From NCBI GenBank assembly GCA_048886685.1, contig JBHLKM010000031.1, forward strand, positions 1 through 24,345: a stretch of 24,345 nt of DNA, read 5' to 3'. How positions within the stretch are numbered: position 1 is the stretch's first letter; the number at the start of each line of letters is the position of its first letter. Below are positions 1 to 21,044 of this stretch, in pieces. The notes under the pieces are model-generated. The model saw nothing but the letters and a program-made list of their open reading frames with translations. It was not told where the DNA came from and searched no databases. Made by a program: the position numbers and the translations under genes. The stretch comes from Candidatus Hodarchaeota archaeon. Its GTDB lineage: Archaea; Asgardarchaeota; Lokiarchaeia; Sigyniarchaeales; SOKP01.

Positions 1-3000
1 TCCTATAGCGATATAATGAAATATGAAATATTTAAAGGAGCAGATCTTATTCAATCTGGGAATTTGGGCATTGAAAATGATTACAAGGGAACTCATTATT
101 CATTTATCAATACAGAAAATTTAGAAAGCGATGTAACTTATTTAATTTTTGTTTCAGCTCAAAAATCGGGATATTCAATTCCTCAAGACTTACTCCTACA
201 ATTAAGCATATTAGAAAATAATTTAATCCTCAATCAATCCCAAAATGATGACTCAGTACAATCAGTCTATTGGTCAGACAATATTGATTTCTCGGTAAAA
301 GCGTATGGGGAAATTTCTGAAAGTTTTACTACTGAAACGAACATTTTTCAAGATATCGATCATAATTTTAAGTTTTCTCTCCCCGATATTACCACGAATT
401 GGAATTTATCGCGAATAACATTCAATATTTACAATATCTCGTGGAATGCTAATGCATCTGATATTAACTTATCCATCTTAGATCCTTATGGCATCAATAA
501 CATATTTAATACCTCTAATCATGCAGGATGGGATTATAATCTGGGAGTCTGGACGGGGATTACCATAAATGTAGATAAAGAAAGCCCGACACACGATAAT
601 TATTTTGAATTCAGTATTAGTGGAACATTTGATAACACAATAGATATCATTGCCGACGCATATTTCATTAGAACTGGTATTAATATTCAATATGAAAAAT
701 TTAATATTTCAGACAAAATTACTCTTGTATCTGAATCTGAGGGGTGGGTAATTAAGAATATTACATTTATAATTCAAAATTGCTACAATACTGCTACGTG
801 GGAGAAAATAAACTTATCTACCCTCACGAATTTAAATATCTCTACTGCGGATGACTTTAAATATTCTCTTCGGTCTGGGGATGAAAATGGAAATGGAGTA
901 TTAATAATAGATGATAAAATTATATATCCCATAGATAATCAATATCTATTTAGTGTTGAAAGCAATCCAAATATTGTATTCGATGCAATTATAAAGGTTG
1001 AATTTATTCAAGCTTTTTATCAAAATAAGCATATAGAAACTATTAACATATCATACATCCAGGAAAATATTCCTAATGGTGGAACTTATCAATTAAGTTT
1101 AACAAATGATTGGGGTGAAGAATACGCAGTTTTGTTAATAAGTGGTATAAATAACAAAACTAAAACCTTTTCTCCTTCAGAGGTTGCCATGAACATAACA
1201 ATTGGAGGTCAAACATATACCGTAATAAACACTCTTCCTGGACAAGGGATATTTTCGTTAAATGGTTTTAATAAAGATAGCTTATATTTAGCCTCAATTG
1301 AAACAAATCAACCAGTTAATTTCACGCTTTCTTTTAAAATCGGTTACTTAAGAACAGTTACCTACGAAACATTAGGGACTGTAACGTATGTTATACAAGA
1401 ATCACCCGATATATTTGGAATTGTAGATTATTATCCTAGTTTGGGAGAATTTATATTGAGTATAGATACTTCGCTAGTAGATGCAGACTATTACACTATA
1501 ATTTTTGAAGTATTTAAAGAGAATTATAAGATAACTACAAAAGACTTCGATTTCATGGTAATGAATCGCTTAACCTTAATAAATGGAGATTCAAAAATAT
1601 ATAGAGAACTTGAATTCATTTATGTTAAAGACGCACGGAATTTTACCTTTTTGTATACAGACGCCTTAACAGGAAGTAGAATTACAGATTTAACCACTCA
1701 ATCTTTTATGTGGGAAAAATACGATATTGACGGAAATGTAACCGCTAATGGTGAAGGAACATTAATTCAAGAAGTTGATGGATCTCTTGTGTTGGATTTT
1801 AACTCTGAAATCAGAGCTGTTGGAGATTATCTGTTAATTGTTAATTTGGAGAAAGATAATTATGAGTATAAAAACGCTATGATTCTTCTAACAATTAAGA
1901 CAAGGTTTTTATCATATTCTTTAGGGAGTAATTTCAAAAATTATCATATAAGTGTCGTTAAAGGTCATAGAGTCCCAATCCAAATGAACTTGACTGATCC
2001 AACGCAGGGTGGAATTCCTTTATTAAATGCTTCTGTTAGACTGATGATAAGTGGTATAGAATACCAATTCAATGAAGATACTAATGGAACATACATTCTT
2101 AATTTCCCAACTAGCAATGTGAACGCCTTTTTCGCATCAAAAACTCTCACAGGAATTATCAACATTACCAGAGAGGACTACTTTTCAGAAGAATTCTTAA
2201 TCACCATTACAGTTGAAATGGAAGAGATATTCCCAGGTATGCCAATGTTTTACTTTTTAATAATTGTATTTGCTATTCTCGCAACTGTTGGAAGCATAGT
2301 TGGCTATAGGGTATATAAGCATGCAACAATTCCAACTTTTGTTAAAAATGTAAGACAGATGCAAAAAGAAATTAAAGGGGGAAAATTAATCTCAGAATCC
2401 TTGCTATATCAAACAAAAGAAATTTTTGTTGGAGAGATAGTAAGAGATAGGTGGAGTGCTGTTGGACTTTCATTAGGAGATATATTAGGCATCGGAATTA
2501 AAAGAAGCAAAAAGATACCTCAACTAAAGCAGGTCACCTCAGAAGAAGAACATTATCTAAAACCATTAGGACTAATATTAATGAAATGGGATGAAAGAAT
2601 TGGATCAGAGATCATGGCAAAATACCCAGAAGATCTTAATGTTTCAGATAAAACTTTGATGCAAATATACGGAACACATGAATATAGTGGTGAAAAGGGT
2701 TTAGTTTCATTAATTAGGGGTAATCTAAACGTCTTATCATATTATACTGGTCCGGAATCAGCTTATTATGTTATTTTAATTTTAAGTATTGATGATGATC
2801 CTGATATTTATGAAGGAGCAATGCCCAATGTCGCACAATTGATACTTCAAAATCTTGATGATGATATATATCTACAGATGGTTCCCTCACTTTTCCAGCG
2901 CTTATCGGTCTATCCTTCTCTCACTGGTGAGCAAAATCTGATCTATTATTATCAAGATGATATCAAACGAATGGTAATTAATATCTTAAGAGATTATGGA

Positions 3001-3654
3001 GTAATTACCAAATCAGAGTTGAATATATGGGTGAAAGACAGCAAATTAGAAGGTATTATCGATCTAGAAGCGATTTTAGCGGACCTTATTAAGATCGAAT
3101 TAATAAAAATAACTTCAGTAAAAGGAATTCCTTCCGAGCTTATCTTTCTTACAAAAGAAATTTTCATGATAAGGGTACCTGCTGACACAATATTTAAAGA
3201 TCCTGTTAGTTATGGCTTACCAGCACAACTTACTAAGTTTTATCAAGATGAAGTTCTGAAATTCTTCAATGAATATCAGCCAGCTGAAGAAGATTCTCTT
3301 GAGCTTCTTAACATTTTAATCGATCCTGAAGTATATGAAACTGTCCGTTTATTAAGAACTGCTATAGTCACGATGAAAGATTTTGAAAAATTAAAAACTA
3401 AAGGAGTCAGTGATATTTATAGTGTACTAAAGAAGCTATGGGATACAAATATGATAAAAGTCTTCAAGGATGAGAATGGAATAGAATATTATACCCTCCT
3501 TACAGACTTTTATATTAATATATTTTTTCCCAAATATCTTTTAAATGTTATTAAGCGAACACATGAACAAAAATCTAAAACAGATAAAGTATTACTAGAA
3601 TATCTTAGTTTACTTGAAGAAACCTATTATACTGTTTCAAAATCAAAAAAGTAA
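1..3654 (+). CDS. Large single-pass membrane protein, 5'-truncated by the window: beta-rich extracellular region, TM helix, cytoplasmic uDENN/longin-like domain and tandem winged-helix-like domains
   Basis: Frame is open from base 1 (tcc tat agc gat ata atg), so the true start is probably upstream of the window. N-terminal ~740 aa are beta-rich with many NxS/T sequons. Hydrophobic MFYFLIIVFAILATVGSIVGY lies at ~2245-2307 and is followed by a basic segment. LILMKWDERIGSEIMAKYP from ~2570 resembles the first strands of uDENN longins. Confidence 0.8.
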   Translation, partial: SYSDIMKYEIFKGADLIQSGNLGIENDYKGTHYSFINTENLESDVTYLIFVSAQKSGYSIPQDLLLQLSILENNLILNQSQNDDSVQSVYWSDNIDFSVKAYGEISESFTTETNIFQDIDHNFKFSLPDITTNWNLSRITFNIYNISWNANASDINLSILDPYGINNIFNTSNHAGWDYNLGVWTGITINVDKESPTHDNYFEFSISGTFDNTIDIIADAYFIRTGINIQYEKFNISDKITLVSESEGWVIKNITFIIQNCYNTATWEKINLSTLTNLNISTADDFKYSLRSGDENGNGVLIIDDKIIYPIDNQYLFSVESNPNIVFDAIIKVEFIQAFYQNKHIETINISYIQENIPNGGTYQLSLTNDWGEEYAVLLISGINNKTKTFSPSEVAMNITIGGQTYTVINTLPGQGIFSLNGFNKDSLYLASIETNQPVNFTLSFKIGYLRTVTYETLGTVTYVIQESPDIFGIVDYYPSLGEFILSIDTSLVDADYYTIIFEVFKENYKITTKDFDFMVMNRLTLINGDSKIYRELEFIYVKDARNFTFLYTDALTGSRITDLTTQSFMWEKYDIDGNVTANGEGTLIQEVDGSLVLDFNSEIRAVGDYLLIVNLEKDNYEYKNAMILLTIKTRFLSYSLGSNFKNYHISVVKGHRVPIQMNLTDPTQGGIPLLNASVRLMISGIEYQFNEDTNGTYILNFPTSNVNAFFASKTLTGIINITREDYFSEEFLITITVEMEEIFPGMPMFYFLIIVFAILATVGSIVGYRVYKHATIPTFVKNVRQMQKEIKGGKLISESLLYQTKEIFVGEIVRDRWSAVGLSLGDILGIGIKRSKKIPQLKQVTSEEEHYLKPLGLILMKWDERIGSEIMAKYPEDLNVSDKTLMQIYGTHEYSGEKGLVSLIRGNLNVLSYYTGPESAYYVILILSIDDDPDIYEGAMPNVAQLILQNLDDDIYLQMVPSLFQRLSVYPSLTGEQNLIYYYQDDIKRMVINILRDYGVITKSELNIWVKDSKLEGIIDLEAILADLIKIELIKITSVKGIPSELIFLTKEIFMIRVPADTIFKDPVSYGLPAQLTKFYQDEVLKFFNEYQPAEEDSLELLNILIDPEVYETVRLLRTAIVTMKDFEKLKTKGVSDIYSVLKKLWDTNMIKVFKDENGIEYYTLLTDFYINIFFPKYLLNVIKRTHEQKSKTDKVLLEYLSLLEETYYTVSKSKK

Positions 3655-3996: not shown

Positions 3997-5226
3997 ATGT
4001 TTTTTGATGAAGAAACCAGTATGCGGATTCGATATCTGCACTTCAAGATTAAAAAAATTGAAGCTGCTATAGTAAAAGAAGATGAATATTTTACTCTTGA
4101 TGATTTAAATCTCGTTTTAGAATATACGAAAGCCTTAAATAGAAATTATCAGAACGCAAATCATAAAGAGATTTTAGCAGATTTGGATATTACTAGGACT
4201 TTCCAAGATCTTTTAATTAACAAAGAAATAGAGATTCAAGATATAATGTTTGAATGTGCTCGTGTTCTTTGGGTTATGGCAAGAGCTTATTCTCAGCTTT
4301 CTGAGAAATATGAAGATGATGGAGAATGGGAGAATGCAATAATCGCAATGACAGAGTGCAGTAAAATGTATAAAACTTCAGCATATTTTAGTGCTGCAGT
4401 TATTAATCAAAAAGATATAGGGGTAACACTTGATTCTGAAAATTTAGAATTGAATTCAGAAGAATCAAGAATTCTTGCTCAAAGTATTGCTGCATTACGA
4501 GAAGAAACTAATAATAATATTTACTTTGCTTCAAAATTATATGCAGGACTTAGTTTATTATCAAAAAGATTGTTTTATTTAAAACAACATATGGAGAAAA
4601 AAAAGCAACAGATAAGAGCTCAATTTCATTATGATATGGGAAAAGCTTGCCATCTTAAAGCTCAGGCTTCTTTGGAATCATCGATAACTAATATCAATAA
4701 AGAGAAAGTTAAAAAGCTTGAACAAAAAGCTTTCTGGTATTATAGTAAAGCAAAAGATATCTGGGAAGATATGATCAAGAATATATCGCTCTCAATCGAT
4801 GAGAAAGAAACTATTGAGCTCAATTTATCTATAGTTAATGATAATCTTAACCAAAATGATGTAGATCCGTTGGATTACGAAGATATAAAAAAAATACAAG
4901 ATCCAGAACCGATAATTATTATTCCTGAAAACCTTGCGCCATTTGTACCTAAAAATATTATATATTTAACTAAATTTGTACCTAAAGATTTAAATATTAA
5001 GAGATTTAAGGCTTACCAAAGGAAAAAGTTGGAGGAAAAAATACCTTATAGTAAAAAAGAAAAACTAATGGATCAAAAAGCTGGTGTAGTTCGAACTATA
5101 AATGAGTTGAAAGTATTAAATGAGAATAATGAGATAGAAATCGAGAAGTTCGCGGAATTAATGGAAAAGTACTCCACAAAGCTCAAGATGATTGAATCTG
5201 CTATTGAGAAATTAATGAAAAAGTAA
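3997..5226 (+). CDS. Hypothetical alpha-helical (TPR-like repeat) protein with C-terminal helical hairpin
   Basis: 409-aa ORF with Ala/Tyr-periodic helices (ARAYSQLSEKYEDDGEWENAIIAM, AQFHYDMGKACHLKA, KAFWYYSKAKDIW). Confidence 0.7.
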   Translation: MFFDEETSMRIRYLHFKIKKIEAAIVKEDEYFTLDDLNLVLEYTKALNRNYQNANHKEILADLDITRTFQDLLINKEIEIQDIMFECARVLWVMARAYSQLSEKYEDDGEWENAIIAMTECSKMYKTSAYFSAAVINQKDIGVTLDSENLELNSEESRILAQSIAALREETNNNIYFASKLYAGLSLLSKRLFYLKQHMEKKKQQIRAQFHYDMGKACHLKAQASLESSITNINKEKVKKLEQKAFWYYSKAKDIWEDMIKNISLSIDEKETIELNLSIVNDNLNQNDVDPLDYEDIKKIQDPEPIIIIPENLAPFVPKNIIYLTKFVPKDLNIKRFKAYQRKKLEEKIPYSKKEKLMDQKAGVVRTINELKVLNENNEIEIEKFAELMEKYSTKLKMIESAIEKLMKK

Positions 5227-11151: not shown

Positions 11152-11544
11152 CTAAGATTTTCTAGATATTTTCATATTCAATCCATTTCTTGCTTTTAAT
11201 AATAATTCAAGGTTTGTTTTCACTTTACCTACTTTATTCACTTTATTTGGCATTTGCATATTTTCGATAAGGATTACTAACTCATCTGTTTTAGGATTAT
11301 ATACAATTTCTCCTTTCTCTACATCTTTTATCGATTTTGAATTTGTACCTTTAAAAATTCCTAACCCTGGAAGTGTCCAGTAATTCTTCGAACCAAAGCT
11401 AAATCTACCTCTTAGATTAATTGGTAATTTTTCAATTATAGCATCTGCAGAAAGTGGGGCAATATGTCTGATAATTTCACCCTCTAATGTTCCTATCCCA
11501 AATAAATCCATCTTTATGGGGATTAAACCTGCATCACTATTCAT
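11152..11544 (-). CDS. Cyclophilin-like fold protein (archaeal, likely non-PPIase)
   Basis: RHIAPLSADAIIEKLP, VEKGEIVYNP and VNKVGKV pattern of archaeal cyclophilin-like proteins. Confidence 0.7.
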   Translation of the reverse strand: MNSDAGLIPIKMDLFGIGTLEGEIIRHIAPLSADAIIEKLPINLRGRFSFGSKNYWTLPGLGIFKGTNSKSIKDVEKGEIVYNPKTDELVILIENMQMPNKVNKVGKVKTNLELLLKARNGLNMKISRKS

Positions 11545-11642
11545 ATTTTATAAATAATGTAATTATAGATATTTATATTATTTTAATTCGATTCATTAAT
11601 TATTTCCTCAATGAAATCTAAATAATTATTATTATATTTAAT

Positions 11643-11657
11643 AACAAAATTTAAATA
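11643..11657 (+). promoter_or_regulatory. Putative BRE/TATA promoter for the ncRNA
   Basis: Purine-rich aacaaaa followed by tttaaata (11650-11657), ending 24 nt before the first paired G at 11681. This is typical archaeal spacing. Confidence 0.55.
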
Positions 11658-11680
11658 CTTCTTTTATCATATAGTGAGTT

Positions 11681-12178
11681 GAAGAGGATAATAGGTTTGC
11701 ATTGGAATTAGATGCGGTTCAAACACCGAATTTATTGTTTGCTTTAGAGAAACTGATTCCTTTTTACGAGATTTTTTTTGATACCTAATGATTTAATAAT
11801 ATAACACTCTATTTCAAAAGATTATTTCCCATATGTTCCTGAAATGCTTAATACGAAACTACAGAGAGGTTAACATTCGAATGAATTCTGTCAACCAATC
11901 TTTAAAATTAGCATATTGGAGCAAAATCATAAGTCCTTCATTTAATCCATCATTGAATATATAAAAATTTTAGCATTGAGACATTATTACTCTGAGGATT
12001 GAGTTTTGATTAAGTTGTATTAAAATTGTATTCACGAGACAATGAAACAATGAGAAATATGGTTTTAAATGAGAGTTTTTTTATAATAGGAGCTTTGATT
12101 ACATAATTGCTTCATAGGATAATGATTCTATACATTCCTTTGAAACAAAGAAAAATCGGAGCGCCTATTGTCCTTTTC
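11681..12178 (+). ncRNA. Putative large structured non-coding RNA (~500 nt), family unassigned
   Basis: GAAGAGGATAATAGGT (11681-11696) pairs with GCCTATTGTCCTTTTC (12163-12178): 16 contiguous bp, three of them G-U, which fixes the + strand. Several nested helices inside, no ORF of 60 aa or more, TATA upstream, T8 downstream. GC is ~29% versus ~12% in the upstream spacer (hand count). Confidence 0.7.
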
Positions 12179-12180
12179 CC

Positions 12181-12188
12181 TTTTTTTT
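12181..12188 (+). terminator. Oligo-T terminator of the putative ncRNA
   Basis: T8 run starting 3 nt after the terminal helix, convergent with the nucleotidyltransferase stop. Confidence 0.5.
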
Positions 12189-13026
12189 ATTTTAAGCTCA
12201 ATAGATCTGATTTTGTATCGATATCATTGAATCTGTATTTGGGATCGATGGGAACTCCATAAAGTATATTCTTTTGCTTATTTATATGGTTAAATATTTC
12301 TTTAATTGTGGTTGCTGAAATTTTTCTTTCGGTTTCTATAATTTTATTAAGAATTCTATGATTAAAAACAAATAAAGGTACAATTAGATTAATTTCTTCA
12401 TTTTCACTAATATCGCTTAGTTTAAATTGCTGTAGTTCTTTAACTATTATTTCTTTTGATTTCGTTTTTTCAATTTTAGCAATTGAAATGAGTTTTTCAG
12501 GATTTAATTTTGTTTTTAGATTAATTGCTTTCATTTTCTGGTAAAATATTATTGATTTATCTCTTATACAAGTAGGATTGTTTGAGATAAAATGAAAAAT
12601 TTCTTCCAATAAAATTGATTCATAATAAGTATCACCAGGAAAGACTAAGTAGATTTTACTTTTTTTAATAATAGATTTACTTTTTATTATAGAAAGAAAA
12701 GAATATAATGGTCCCCTTTTGTAATTGTTACCAGAGTTAAGTAGTAATATTTTATTTTGGAGTGATTCATCTTTTTTCTTAAGGGAAGAGATGTATTCTT
12801 CTATACTCTCTCTTAGATGTCCAGTTATGATAATAATTGATGATAATTTTCGTTTATTTAGATTGAAAATTAAATGAGAGAGAATTGGCTTTCCGTATAT
12901 TTCAATTAATGGTTTTGGTATATTATGAATAAAATTACTTATCCGTGTTCCCTCCCCAGCACATAATATTATCGCTATTATATTTTCTATTATCTTATTC
13001 TTTTGTAGTGACAATTTTATTTCCAT
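12187..13026 (-). CDS. Sugar-phosphate nucleotidyltransferase (NTP_transferase family)
   Basis: AIILCAGEGTRI, PKPLIEI, VFPGD and C-terminal DIDTKSDL. Start is uncertain (13041, ATG 13026 or TTG 13014, all overlapping map). Confidence 0.8.
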   Translation of the reverse strand: MEIKLSLQKNKIIENIIAIILCAGEGTRISNFIHNIPKPLIEIYGKPILSHLIFNLNKRKLSSIIIITGHLRESIEEYISSLKKKDESLQNKILLLNSGNNYKRGPLYSFLSIIKSKSIIKKSKIYLVFPGDTYYESILLEEIFHFISNNPTCIRDKSIIFYQKMKAINLKTKLNPEKLISIAKIEKTKSKEIIVKELQQFKLSDISENEEINLIVPLFVFNHRILNKIIETERKISATTIKEIFNHINKQKNILYGVPIDPKYRFNDIDTKSDLLSLK

Positions 13027-13912
13027 CCGTGTCCAATACAATTGTATGTTCTTCTTGAGCTACGGGTTCCTTACTTACTTCTATTAAAATGGGATATTTA
13101 TCTAAAATCTTTCTTCCCAAAAATGATTCAATTGTTCTCTGAATTTTAGATTTAGGAATAAGATTATTATTTACTATCCAGCGAGGAGAAAAAGGGAGAT
13201 GGTTGAAGTTCTTCTCGATTCCATTCATATACCCTTGTTGTTCATAAGGCATATTTTTTTTAACTCTTTTTACAAATCGATATATATATGAATACTTTCC
13301 ATTTTGAACTTTCCCTACTCCAGAAGTAGCAAATGGTTCACATGCATAAGCATCTCCTGGTTTTAATTCTTGATTATGTATTTTTTCTTTATAATTCGGG
13401 ATAAATGGGCCCGCATGCAAATTATATTGCTTTAACTCATGACCTCCTAGATTTGTTATTGGTCTTAATCCTCTATTTATAATTTTTTGGGCAATCACTT
13501 CACCCAATTCGTACAATTTAATCCCAGGATTAAACAGTTCTATAGCTGCATCAAGAGCTTCTCTTGCAGCGTCAATATAATTTTGAAGTTTAGGATCATC
13601 ATCCAAATTAATAGTAAAAGCAGAATCTGCAATATATCCGTTAAAAAGAGCACCAATATCAATTTTTAATAGACCTTTTTCAGGGATAATTGTTTTATCG
13701 TCAATTTCTGGGCTATAATGGGCTGCAATTTCATTTAAAGACATATTTATTGGAAAAGATAAATCACATCCAGCTTTCAGTATTTCTGCTTCGCATCTGT
13801 TAGCTATCTCCAAGAATGGCACTCCAGGTTTAATAATACCTTTTGCTAATTTCTTTGCAGCAATAACTCCTTTTCCAGCTCGTATATAATCTTGAATATA
13901 ATCGTCGCTCAT
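12995..13912 (-). CDS. map: Methionine aminopeptidase type II
   Basis: FPINMS, AAHYSP, KIDIG, GYIADSAFT, NLGGH, LHAG, EPFAT, AQEEHT. Confidence 0.96.
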   Translation of the reverse strand: MSDDYIQDYIRAGKGVIAAKKLAKGIIKPGVPFLEIANRCEAEILKAGCDLSFPINMSLNEIAAHYSPEIDDKTIIPEKGLLKIDIGALFNGYIADSAFTINLDDDPKLQNYIDAAREALDAAIELFNPGIKLYELGEVIAQKIINRGLRPITNLGGHELKQYNLHAGPFIPNYKEKIHNQELKPGDAYACEPFATSGVGKVQNGKYSYIYRFVKRVKKNMPYEQQGYMNGIEKNFNHLPFSPRWIVNNNLIPKSKIQRTIESFLGRKILDKYPILIEVSKEPVAQEEHTIVLDTDGNKIVTTKE

Positions 13913-19384: not shown

Positions 19385-20305
19385 TTATATTTTTACAGTA
19401 AGAATCTTATCAATTTCATCTTCAATAGTCAAGATTTCTTTAATAACGTCTCTAAATTCTACTTTAGACACTTTTTCTCTATTTAACACAGTTTTTGCTA
19501 TTGCTTTATATTTCTCAATCGTATCAAAATCAGCAAAATTTTTAAGCTTCAAACAGAGAGAATATAGATAGGAGTAAGTCTCTGAATATTTTGAATATTC
19601 TAAAGACTCTTTTACCATATCTAAATAATATTGTAATCTAAGTCTCCGATCTTTAATTTCATCTCTGAGAGATTTTGCTTCTGTTTGATATTCAATAAAT
19701 TTCTCATCATCTCGAAGTTTTTCGGAAATATCAATTAACTTCTTAGAAATTTCATATTTTTCTAGATAATTTTCCTCAACTAAATATTGTGTGGTGAGCT
19801 CCTCTTTTTCCTCCAATAAATTTTCTCTCAATTGTTCAGAAAGAGCACCCTTTTGTTCCCAAATTGATTTTAAAATAGAACTCTGATTGTTAGTTAAAGA
19901 GGATTCAGAAATTAACTTCTTATTAGATAGAATTAGCTTTATAATTGTTAAATCAAATATTTCAAGCTTCTCCGGCTCTTGATTCCAATTAGTGAATAAT
20001 TCACTATGATCCATTATAATCTTGATAATCTTAGGGATCATTTTCTGAGCTTCTTTTATATCTTCACTATCAATTATGATTACTAAATCAGAAGCTACTT
20101 CATTTATCCTTGAAATAAGAACGAGATACGCCCCTAATTCAATTGTACTTAGTGACTCTGTGCTACTCTCAGTTAATTCAGACACAAAAGTTTGGAGTGC
20201 AGAAAAAAAGGAGCTAAACATTTCCATTTTTTCATCGCTTTGAAAATTCTTGTTATATAACAACTTCTTTGTATTGCTTTGAAAGATATAAAGTGATTGG
20301 ATCAT
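19385..20305 (-). CDS. Longin-like domain protein with helical C-terminal region
   Basis: MIQSLYIF..KLLYNKNF..MFSSFFSALQTFVSEL..LSTIELG..VIIID gives a beta-beta-alpha-beta-beta-beta-alpha longin pattern. Confidence 0.72.
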   Translation of the reverse strand: MIQSLYIFQSNTKKLLYNKNFQSDEKMEMFSSFFSALQTFVSELTESSTESLSTIELGAYLVLISRINEVASDLVIIIDSEDIKEAQKMIPKIIKIIMDHSELFTNWNQEPEKLEIFDLTIIKLILSNKKLISESSLTNNQSSILKSIWEQKGALSEQLRENLLEEKEELTTQYLVEENYLEKYEISKKLIDISEKLRDDEKFIEYQTEAKSLRDEIKDRRLRLQYYLDMVKESLEYSKYSETYSYLYSLCLKLKNFADFDTIEKYKAIAKTVLNREKVSKVEFRDVIKEILTIEDEIDKILTVKI

Positions 20306-20496: not shown

Positions 20497-20691
20497 TTAT
20501 AATTCTATAATATCACAGGATATATTCCTTAGAAGTCTTTCTGCAGTTAGTGGATCTGTTTTAAATGTATAAAGAATTTTTTTAGTTCTTAGTTTCAATT
20601 TAACAACTTCTTTTAAGCGCTTAACTCTGCAATGAACAGCGAATTCCGACAACTCTATAAATTTTTCTTCATCAAAAATTTCTCTAGGCAT
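20497..20691 (-). CDS. rpl38e: Ribosomal protein eL38
   Basis: MPREI..F....RVKR..VKLKLRT...LYTFK matches eL38. Confidence 0.9.
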   Translation of the reverse strand: MPREIFDEEKFIELSEFAVHCRVKRLKEVVKLKLRTKKILYTFKTDPLTAERLLRNISCDIIEL

Positions 20692-20882: not shown

Positions 20883-21044
20883 ATGCCGATTGATGACCCA
20901 GCGAAACGAAGAATCGCCCGATATCATTTATTGGAGAAAAGTGTTTGCCGAAAATGTGGAGCTTTAAATCCCGTTAGAGCAAAGAAATGTAGACGTTGCC
21001 ATAGTAAAGATTTACGACCTAAAAGAAGAGAGCTTACTAAGTAA
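20883..21044 (+). CDS. rpl40e: Ribosomal protein eL40 (not in ORF track)
   Basis: MPIDDPAKRRIARYHLLEKSVCRKCGALNPVRAKKCRRCHSKDLRPKRRELTK shows the CRKC...NP..A..CRRC...LRPK signature. Confidence 0.96.
   Translation: MPIDDPAKRRIARYHLLEKSVCRKCGALNPVRAKKCRRCHSKDLRPKRRELTK

Follow-up and report, generated by a model that had tools for sequence, protein, structure and literature searches.

The question raised by this locus is what lies between two protein-coding genes on contig JBHLKM010000031.1 of a Candidatus Hodarchaeota archaeon (the window, i.e. the whole stretch of 24,345 nt that was analysed), for which the initial annotation had proposed an unannotated structured RNA gene with its own promoter and terminator. 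The interval almost certainly encodes an independently transcribed, stable and presumably abundant non-coding RNA (probability about 0.95), hereafter referred to as the ncRNA. The features of the locus are listed in Table 1.

Table 1. Coordinates of the ncRNA gene, its elements and its flanking genes in the window.
Feature	Position	Strand	Remarks
Flanking gene, cyclophilin-like, divergent	11152..11544	-	Pfam match; own TATA-like box shortly before the ATG
Archaeal promoter	11640..11657	+	Purine-rich BRE-like stretch and TATA box (11650-11657)
ncRNA gene	11681..12188	+	About 500 nt; predicted to start at or next to G11681 and to end in the U-tract
P1 5' strand	11681..11696	+	Pairs with 12163-12178
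CAUUGG(U/A)UU element	11699..11709	+	1-13 nt behind the P1 core
Internal U-tract	11772..11779	+	Often in a hairpin loop; clade-restricted
Two stacked helices	11835..11922	+	11835-39/11918-22 and 11844-48/11910-14; close a variable arm; genera g1 and g20
Hairpin with a base of UCUUGU-type strand and ACGAGA	12004..12040	+	Followed by a near-invariant GAC
3' rod stacked on P1	12086..12162	+	12092-99/12155-62, 12111-14/12141-44, 12117-19/12136-38
P1 3' strand	12163..12178	+	Pairs with 11681-11696
Terminator-type U-tract	12181..12188	+	T8 after the P1 3' strand
Flanking gene, nucleotidyltransferase, convergent	12187..13041	-	Pfam match

The ncRNA gene is present as a single copy in the genome. Downstream, the last bases of its U-tract overlap the stop codon of the nucleotidyltransferase gene, which is the last member of an asnS-like/map/NTP-transferase run, and the locus stands beside tRNA-synthetase and methionine aminopeptidase genes. 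The gap between the cyclophilin-like and nucleotidyltransferase genes contains no open reading frame of at least 80 aa, in agreement with the initial annotation; the longest ATG-initiated frame inside the ncRNA comprises 43 codons and is not conserved, and no conserved frame was found across 146 copies. The nucleotidyltransferase itself has diverged far more rapidly than the adjacent genes (identity mostly 34-54%, versus 59-94% for the aminopeptidase). In two genomes, G140 and G154 (loci L195 and L194), about 1-2.5 kb of other DNA separates it from the ncRNA gene, and the intervening DNA at L195 resembles, by eye, an IS200/IS605-type element. Elsewhere in the window, three long open reading frames (16-3654 (+), 3997-5226 (+) and 19385-20305 (-)) gave no Pfam match. 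Two small ones fall under the usual length cut-off: 20883-21044 (+), which carries a CxxC...CxxC zinc ribbon and presumably encodes ribosomal protein eL40, and 20497-20691 (-), presumably eL38.

Conservation at the syntenic interval, which had been named as a check, held in relatives. Distinct full-length homologues (n=146, 342-632 nt) were found in 12 genera of one Promethearchaeia family, and the 5' part was found in a 13th genus. Their position was the same at all loci checked (73/73 from genomes, 57/57 from metagenomes), with the cyclophilin-like gene upstream in 73/73 and the nucleotidyltransferase gene downstream in 71/73 loci. The ncRNA is retained in genus g18, where the nucleotidyltransferase gene is missing at the syntenic place, and at locus L102, where about 550 nt of extra sequence precede the cyclophilin-like gene. 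BLAST gave matches in 35/35 genomes of the same genus, about 30 at the ncRNA locus and the remainder short chance matches. A covariance model of the 3' part detected 89/129 family genomes, in four genera, and 0/19 genomes of other families; in the genera missed by this model, the syntenic interval has the same promoter, closing helix and CAUUGG together with an unalignable interior. The combined pattern of promoter, closing helix and element was present in 88/132 family genomes and in 2/265 other Asgard genomes, both without the remaining features. Syntenic sites in other families hold ordinary genes and no such ncRNA gene, a model of the 5' part gave only promoter-like or in-gene partial matches in the 16 loci checked outside the family, and no copy was found in the viral contigs searched. 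As far as detectable by searches that are limited by how little sequence is conserved, the ncRNA appears to be confined to one Lokiarchaeia family. Three records titled Thorarchaeota or Odinarchaeota (L036, L048 and L062) also carry it; these titles are probably mislabels, since the 3' part of L036 is identical to the g1 locus L011. Two bins, G122 (contigs C87 and C151) and G144 (C57 and C117), hold two copies each of the ncRNA 5' part or of the whole locus, as a result of duplication or bin contamination.

Four features are family-wide: a TATA promoter, a covarying terminal helix (P1), the CAUUGG element and a 3' U-tract. The end-to-end helix described in the initial annotation, 16 bp long and with three G-U pairs, was confirmed in the window, as were the TATA box, 23 nt before the first G, and the T8 run downstream. 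Across homologues, 21-26 nt separate the TATA box from the first paired G, a spacing conserved in all genera. P1 forms a contiguous helix of 9-17 bp (median 12 bp) in 98/98 homologues and covaries across genera. When its strands were anchored by sequence only, pairing within the own genus reached 0.974, versus 0.875 (sd 0.022) for genus-permuted partners, with 0/5000 permutations reaching the observed value. Position 4 occurs as C-G, U-A, G-C and A-U, and position 10 as G-C, U-A and A-U. The CAUUGG element, including the variants CA(U/A)UG(G/U), is found in 93/98 homologues and in all 12 genera with full-length copies. The exact element is absent in 5/98 copies, four of them in g1 with the 5' domain deleted or rewritten. 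The g1 copies at L005:1476-1860, L055, L127 and L129 have lost or rewritten the 5' domain with CAUUGG and kept P1 and the 3' rod; they may be natural deletion variants or assembly artefacts. No constant intramolecular partner for CAUUGG was found, perfect 3' pairing being restricted to g19 and pairing elsewhere being at background. The U-tract behind P1 is conserved throughout the family. Termination at U-tracts with aCPSF1 has been described, the Lokiarchaeota orthologue included (PMC8716108). The P1 sequence and CAUUGG stay near-constant while the interior becomes unalignable and total length ranges from 342 to 632 nt.

Contigs from four metatranscriptome studies cover 11697-12171 and read through the internal U-tract, and none of the listed RNA contigs runs into either flanking gene. 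For runs chosen because they hold the ncRNA, and with contigs of relatives at mostly 80-95% identity, contig depth in the bin 11614-12014 was 77, 65 and 73 in three wetland metatranscriptomes and 10 in a fourth run, compared with 0 in all four runs for the next upstream bin (11213-11613); the Alba bin had depths of 1.7, 2.4 and 5.5 in the same three runs and 34 in the fourth. The ncRNA is therefore present in RNA libraries and is presumably abundant, although contigs of this kind carry no information on strand, ends or level. Its + strand and its ends are predicted from the geometry of promoter and U-tract, together with conserved U-G pairs in the case of the strand, and the discrete transcript anticipated by the initial annotation is likewise a predicted one. 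The folding energy of the window ncRNA, also put forward as a check, gave a modest signal (z = -1.95, 4/100 shuffles as good; mean z over 19 homologues, -2.6), and the case for the ncRNA accordingly rests on its relatives. In several genera the two strands fold with similar energy, and this measure does not fix the strand by itself.

This similarity of the two strands would suit a cis-acting or antisense element, such as one that acts on the convergent map/nucleotidyltransferase operon as a structured 3' region, an insulator or an antisense regulator or, as a variant, one that serves the cyclophilin-like gene as a - strand leader; so would the perfectly fixed position and the overlap of the U-tract with the nucleotidyltransferase stop codon. 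Such an element is nevertheless quite improbable: the + strand carries a TATA box at fixed distance and a U-tract in all genera, the ncRNA persists in g18 and at L102 despite the altered surroundings, the cyclophilin-like gene has a TATA-like box of its own, and no listed RNA contig enters the flanks. The fixed locus, the covariation of P1, the conserved promoter spacing and U-tract, and the RNA contigs instead bear out an independently transcribed large ncRNA.

The interior of the ncRNA is lineage-specific. Its clade-restricted features occur mainly in g1, g20, g22, g25 and g29, and the helices among them are 0.6-1.0 canonical but nearly invariant. Covariation was assessed with a self-written tree-based null in the manner of R-scape, in all-against-all and two-set tests. 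No interior pair was significant, and the best pair was an extension of P1 (E about 1.4); of the covariation sought in relatives, that of P1 was thus found and that of the interior was not. Too little variation or too poor an alignment keeps the interior helices from yielding significant covariation, and since none passed these tests they are given as consensus predictions. All inner helices listed in the initial annotation are complementary, but only the two stacked ones were upheld, with pairing probabilities of 0.99 (11835-39/11918-22) and 0.92 (11844-48/11910-14) and canonical pairing in 0.61-0.78 of relatives, versus a baseline of 0.42. Five others (11806-32/12050-76, 11925-29/12007-11, 11932-40/11993-12000, 12025-29/12039-43 and 11770-80/12146-57) had probabilities of at most 0.09 in the window and were near baseline in relatives (0.10-0.57 canonical). 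The sixth, 12089-93/12109-13, likewise reached at most 0.09 although it is complementary in relatives (0.78-0.93), its strands being taken by the outer helix of the 3' rod, 12092-99/12155-62. That helix contains tandem U-G pairs, has a probability of 0.98 and is canonical in 0.90-0.96 of relatives.

The hairpin upstream of the rod is 0.74-1.0 canonical over 95 anchored homologues with little covariation, and its base is reduced to G-U pairs in the window copy. H/ACA guide RNAs have a hairpin with a K-turn, a pseudouridylation pocket and ACA at its base; here GAC comes after the hairpin, its final A and the tandem G-A pairs are variable, and the hairpin is of short length. A K-turn or SECIS-like core in this hairpin was rejected on account of the variable 3' G-A, and a T-loop reading of 11715-11728 was dropped because it is not retained in g20. 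The internal U-tract, of U6 or longer, is present in 37/40 cases in g1 and 25/27 in g20 and absent in g19 and g24; it is looped in 57% of cases, versus 33% of control tracts, and is a possible binding site for Sm-like (SmAP/Lsm) proteins.

The 3' end offers an alternative pairing: the P1 5' strand is repeated at 12086-90, and this second copy can pair with 12164-68 in place of the first. When the P1 5' strand was blocked, the P1 3' strand formed local pairs over 5-8.6 bases in g1, g20, g22, g23 and g25, and the alternative hairpin is absent (at most 1.6 bases) in g18, g19, g21, g24, g26, g28 and g29. Such pairing raises the prospect of a 6S-like switch, in which the opening of P1, for instance by a polymerase-made or incoming strand, would refold the 3' end and free a bound factor, for instance RNA polymerase. 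The second partner of the P1 3' strand in five genera and the joint change of all three strands in some g22 copies speak for this mechanism; bacterial 6S RNA likewise has a closing stem. It is distinctly unlikely all the same: the alternative pairing is missing in seven genera and thus not family-wide, the open form costs 5-21 kcal/mol, and the interior is branched and lacks a rod with a symmetric central bubble. There was no Rfam 6S match either. A literature search gave no archaeal 6S RNA, and we know of none.

Searches with Rfam gave nothing at the gathering threshold for the window and, at E 10 or below, only chance snoRNA matches (E 2.1 and 9); on 20 loci with divergent homologues, no match fell inside the ncRNA at either setting (gathering threshold, E 10 or below). 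The family models of OLE, ROOL, GOLLD and raiA did not match, and literature searches found no description of the ncRNA. It is thus an undescribed family, new by the lack of a family or literature match and without a demonstrated new mechanism. The canonical RNase P RNA of the genome lies on contig C2 (131.6 bits) and the SRP RNA on contig C10 at 160736-161049 (+) (66.7 bits, E 1.7e-14, helix-8 motif visible), which supports, along with the Rfam result, the earlier statement that the ncRNA is not a tRNA, rRNA, SRP RNA or canonical RNase P RNA. The score of the SRP RNA is below the gathering score of 96.5, so that standard annotation would miss this gene. A 5S-like gene of 148 nt on contig C12, at 45358-45505 (-), scored 23.2 bits, which is under the Rfam cut-off; it seems to carry an insertion of about 25 nt, and its loop C motif can be recognised. 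SRP RNA was rejected as an identity for the ncRNA for lack of an Rfam match and of the helix 8 SRP54 site, and 5S rRNA for lack of an Rfam match and given the 5S-like gene on C12. A C/D or U3-like guide was discarded as well, the longest antisense stretch to rRNA being 11 nt or less, versus 9-12 in the control. U3-like pairing of CAUUGG with the 5' end of 16S rRNA is contradicted by a 16S end that does not vary across 42 loci, whereas the element does. A last candidate that was set aside is a 9-nt match between 23S rRNA and the P1 5' strand in one g20 genome: two g1 genomes differ at it, and the P1 variants found in g28 and g22 disrupt it.

Archaeal RNase P RNA (RF00373) and RNase MRP RNA share with the ncRNA the size range, an end-to-end P1, a stand-alone gene and one superficially similar junction, namely P5/P7-like stacked helices ending in GGAGCA at 11918-23, which in our estimation resemble the RNase P junction. 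A diverged paralogue of either RNA is nonetheless close to refuted. The ncRNA has neither P4 nor the conserved regions I-V, with CR-I and CR-V absent from the family consensus, and the P4 pseudoknot candidate 11828-33/12058-63 is at baseline in relatives, for which reason the RNase P-like reading of 11828-11922 was given up. The GGAGCA arm, moreover, occurs in g1 and g20 only, no model matched at E 10 or below, and the canonical RNase P RNA is encoded on C2.

The median P1 length of 12 bp and the nearly invariant UGG just behind the 5' strand also bring to mind a tRNA-related RNA, whose P1 would imitate the 12-bp acceptor/T stack and whose CAUUGG would correspond to a D-loop, with a link to translation or tRNA quality control; alternatively, UGG(U/A) would bind the NCCA end of tRNAs by base pairing, in the manner of L15 in RNase P or of T-box antiterminators. 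The sequence around UGG presumably resembles the 5' end of tmRNA, in which the paired ends likewise lead into a D-loop-like stretch with UGG and then a long interior; tRNA-synthetase and methionine aminopeptidase genes, moreover, adjoin the locus. Yet ARAGORN detected neither a tRNA nor a tmRNA in the ncRNA, which has no T-arm before the 3' strand, no conserved CCA, no G3-U70 pair and no conserved tag ORF; SmpB was not found in 5/5 genomes of the family, and a complementarity of three base pairs is no evidence. On this basis tmRNA was rejected, and any tRNA-related reading is distinctly improbable.

OLE, the raiA motif, ROOL and GOLLD are comparable in that they are several hundred nt long, have their own promoter, are apparently abundant and multi-armed, and do not reveal their function in their sequence (PMC3413148, PMC12968392, PMC12286853). 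For bacterial ornate RNAs, RNA-only assemblies have been shown (PMC12286853), and the size, promoter, apparent abundance and many arms of the ncRNA would fit an oligomer or cage of the ROOL, GOLLD or OLE kind, held together by loop-loop and A-minor contacts. This is very improbable, since the interior, the supposed carrier of such contacts, is not conserved across genera and no Rfam match was obtained. The bacterial RNAs have a complex conserved core, whereas only the closing helix and a short element are family-wide in the ncRNA, which differs further in being archaeal, in matching no Rfam family and in having no dedicated partner gene adjoining.

The reading that we favour, tentatively and at slightly less than even odds, is a scaffold or decoy role for the ncRNA, in which a protein partner recognises the closing helix and CAUUGG. 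Transcription would start 21-26 nt after the TATA box and end in the U-tract, the two transcript ends would zip into a helix of about 12 bp, and this helix together with CAUUGG(U/A)UU would be the place where a conserved partner protein binds. The interior of 300-550 nt would consist of lineage-specific arms that provide secondary sites, for example a loop rich in U to which Sm-like proteins would bind. Recognition by a partner is suggested by the letters of P1 and CAUUGG, which are kept although pairing does not need them. A protein site is also the simplest reading of CAUUGG, given that the element has no constant internal partner and no rRNA target, its antisense matches to rRNA being none above control. 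Lsm genes number 2-4 per genome tested in the family (f1); they are equally present in relatives without the ncRNA and hence not family-specific. Among other candidate partners, Ro60/TROVE was found in 0/3 f1 genomes (draft assemblies) and the major vault protein, the partner to be expected of a vault RNA, in 0/14, which speaks against an assignment to vault RNA; SmpB was likewise not found in the f1 genomes tested. One f2 genome, G054, encodes a major-vault-protein shoulder domain (contig C1, 3072766-3073095 (-), E 9e-27).

Y RNAs or stem-bulge RNAs and 7SK-type scaffolds have paired ends in a conserved stem, a variable interior and a U-tail, and the ncRNA is built likewise. It differs from Y RNA by the lack of the Y consensus stem and of an Rfam match, and Ro60/TROVE, as noted above, was not found in the 3 f1 genomes searched. 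A more specific proposal, which we consider unlikely, is that of a eukaryotic-type scaffold RNA following the logic of 7SK, Y or snRNA-like RNAs, which would regulate the transcription or translation machinery and act in some genera as a strand-exchange switch. The components of this logic would be ends that pair, one short element kept invariant for recognition, a U-rich site of the Sm type and an interior that evolves fast.

To our knowledge, the large stable RNAs found across archaea are essentially rRNA, RNase P RNA and SRP RNA. The interest of the ncRNA is limited by its not having been found outside the family and by a function and partner that are only proposed. Throughout its family, which comprises about 130 species-level genomes, it is a single-copy gene at one locus, a pattern that points to an RNA-protein machine not recognised so far, and it belongs to the Asgard archaea, the group closest to eukaryotes. 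Surveys with covariance models miss the ncRNA because its invariant core is tiny and its interior turns over completely, a pattern which suggests that similar RNAs may hide in other Asgard lineages.
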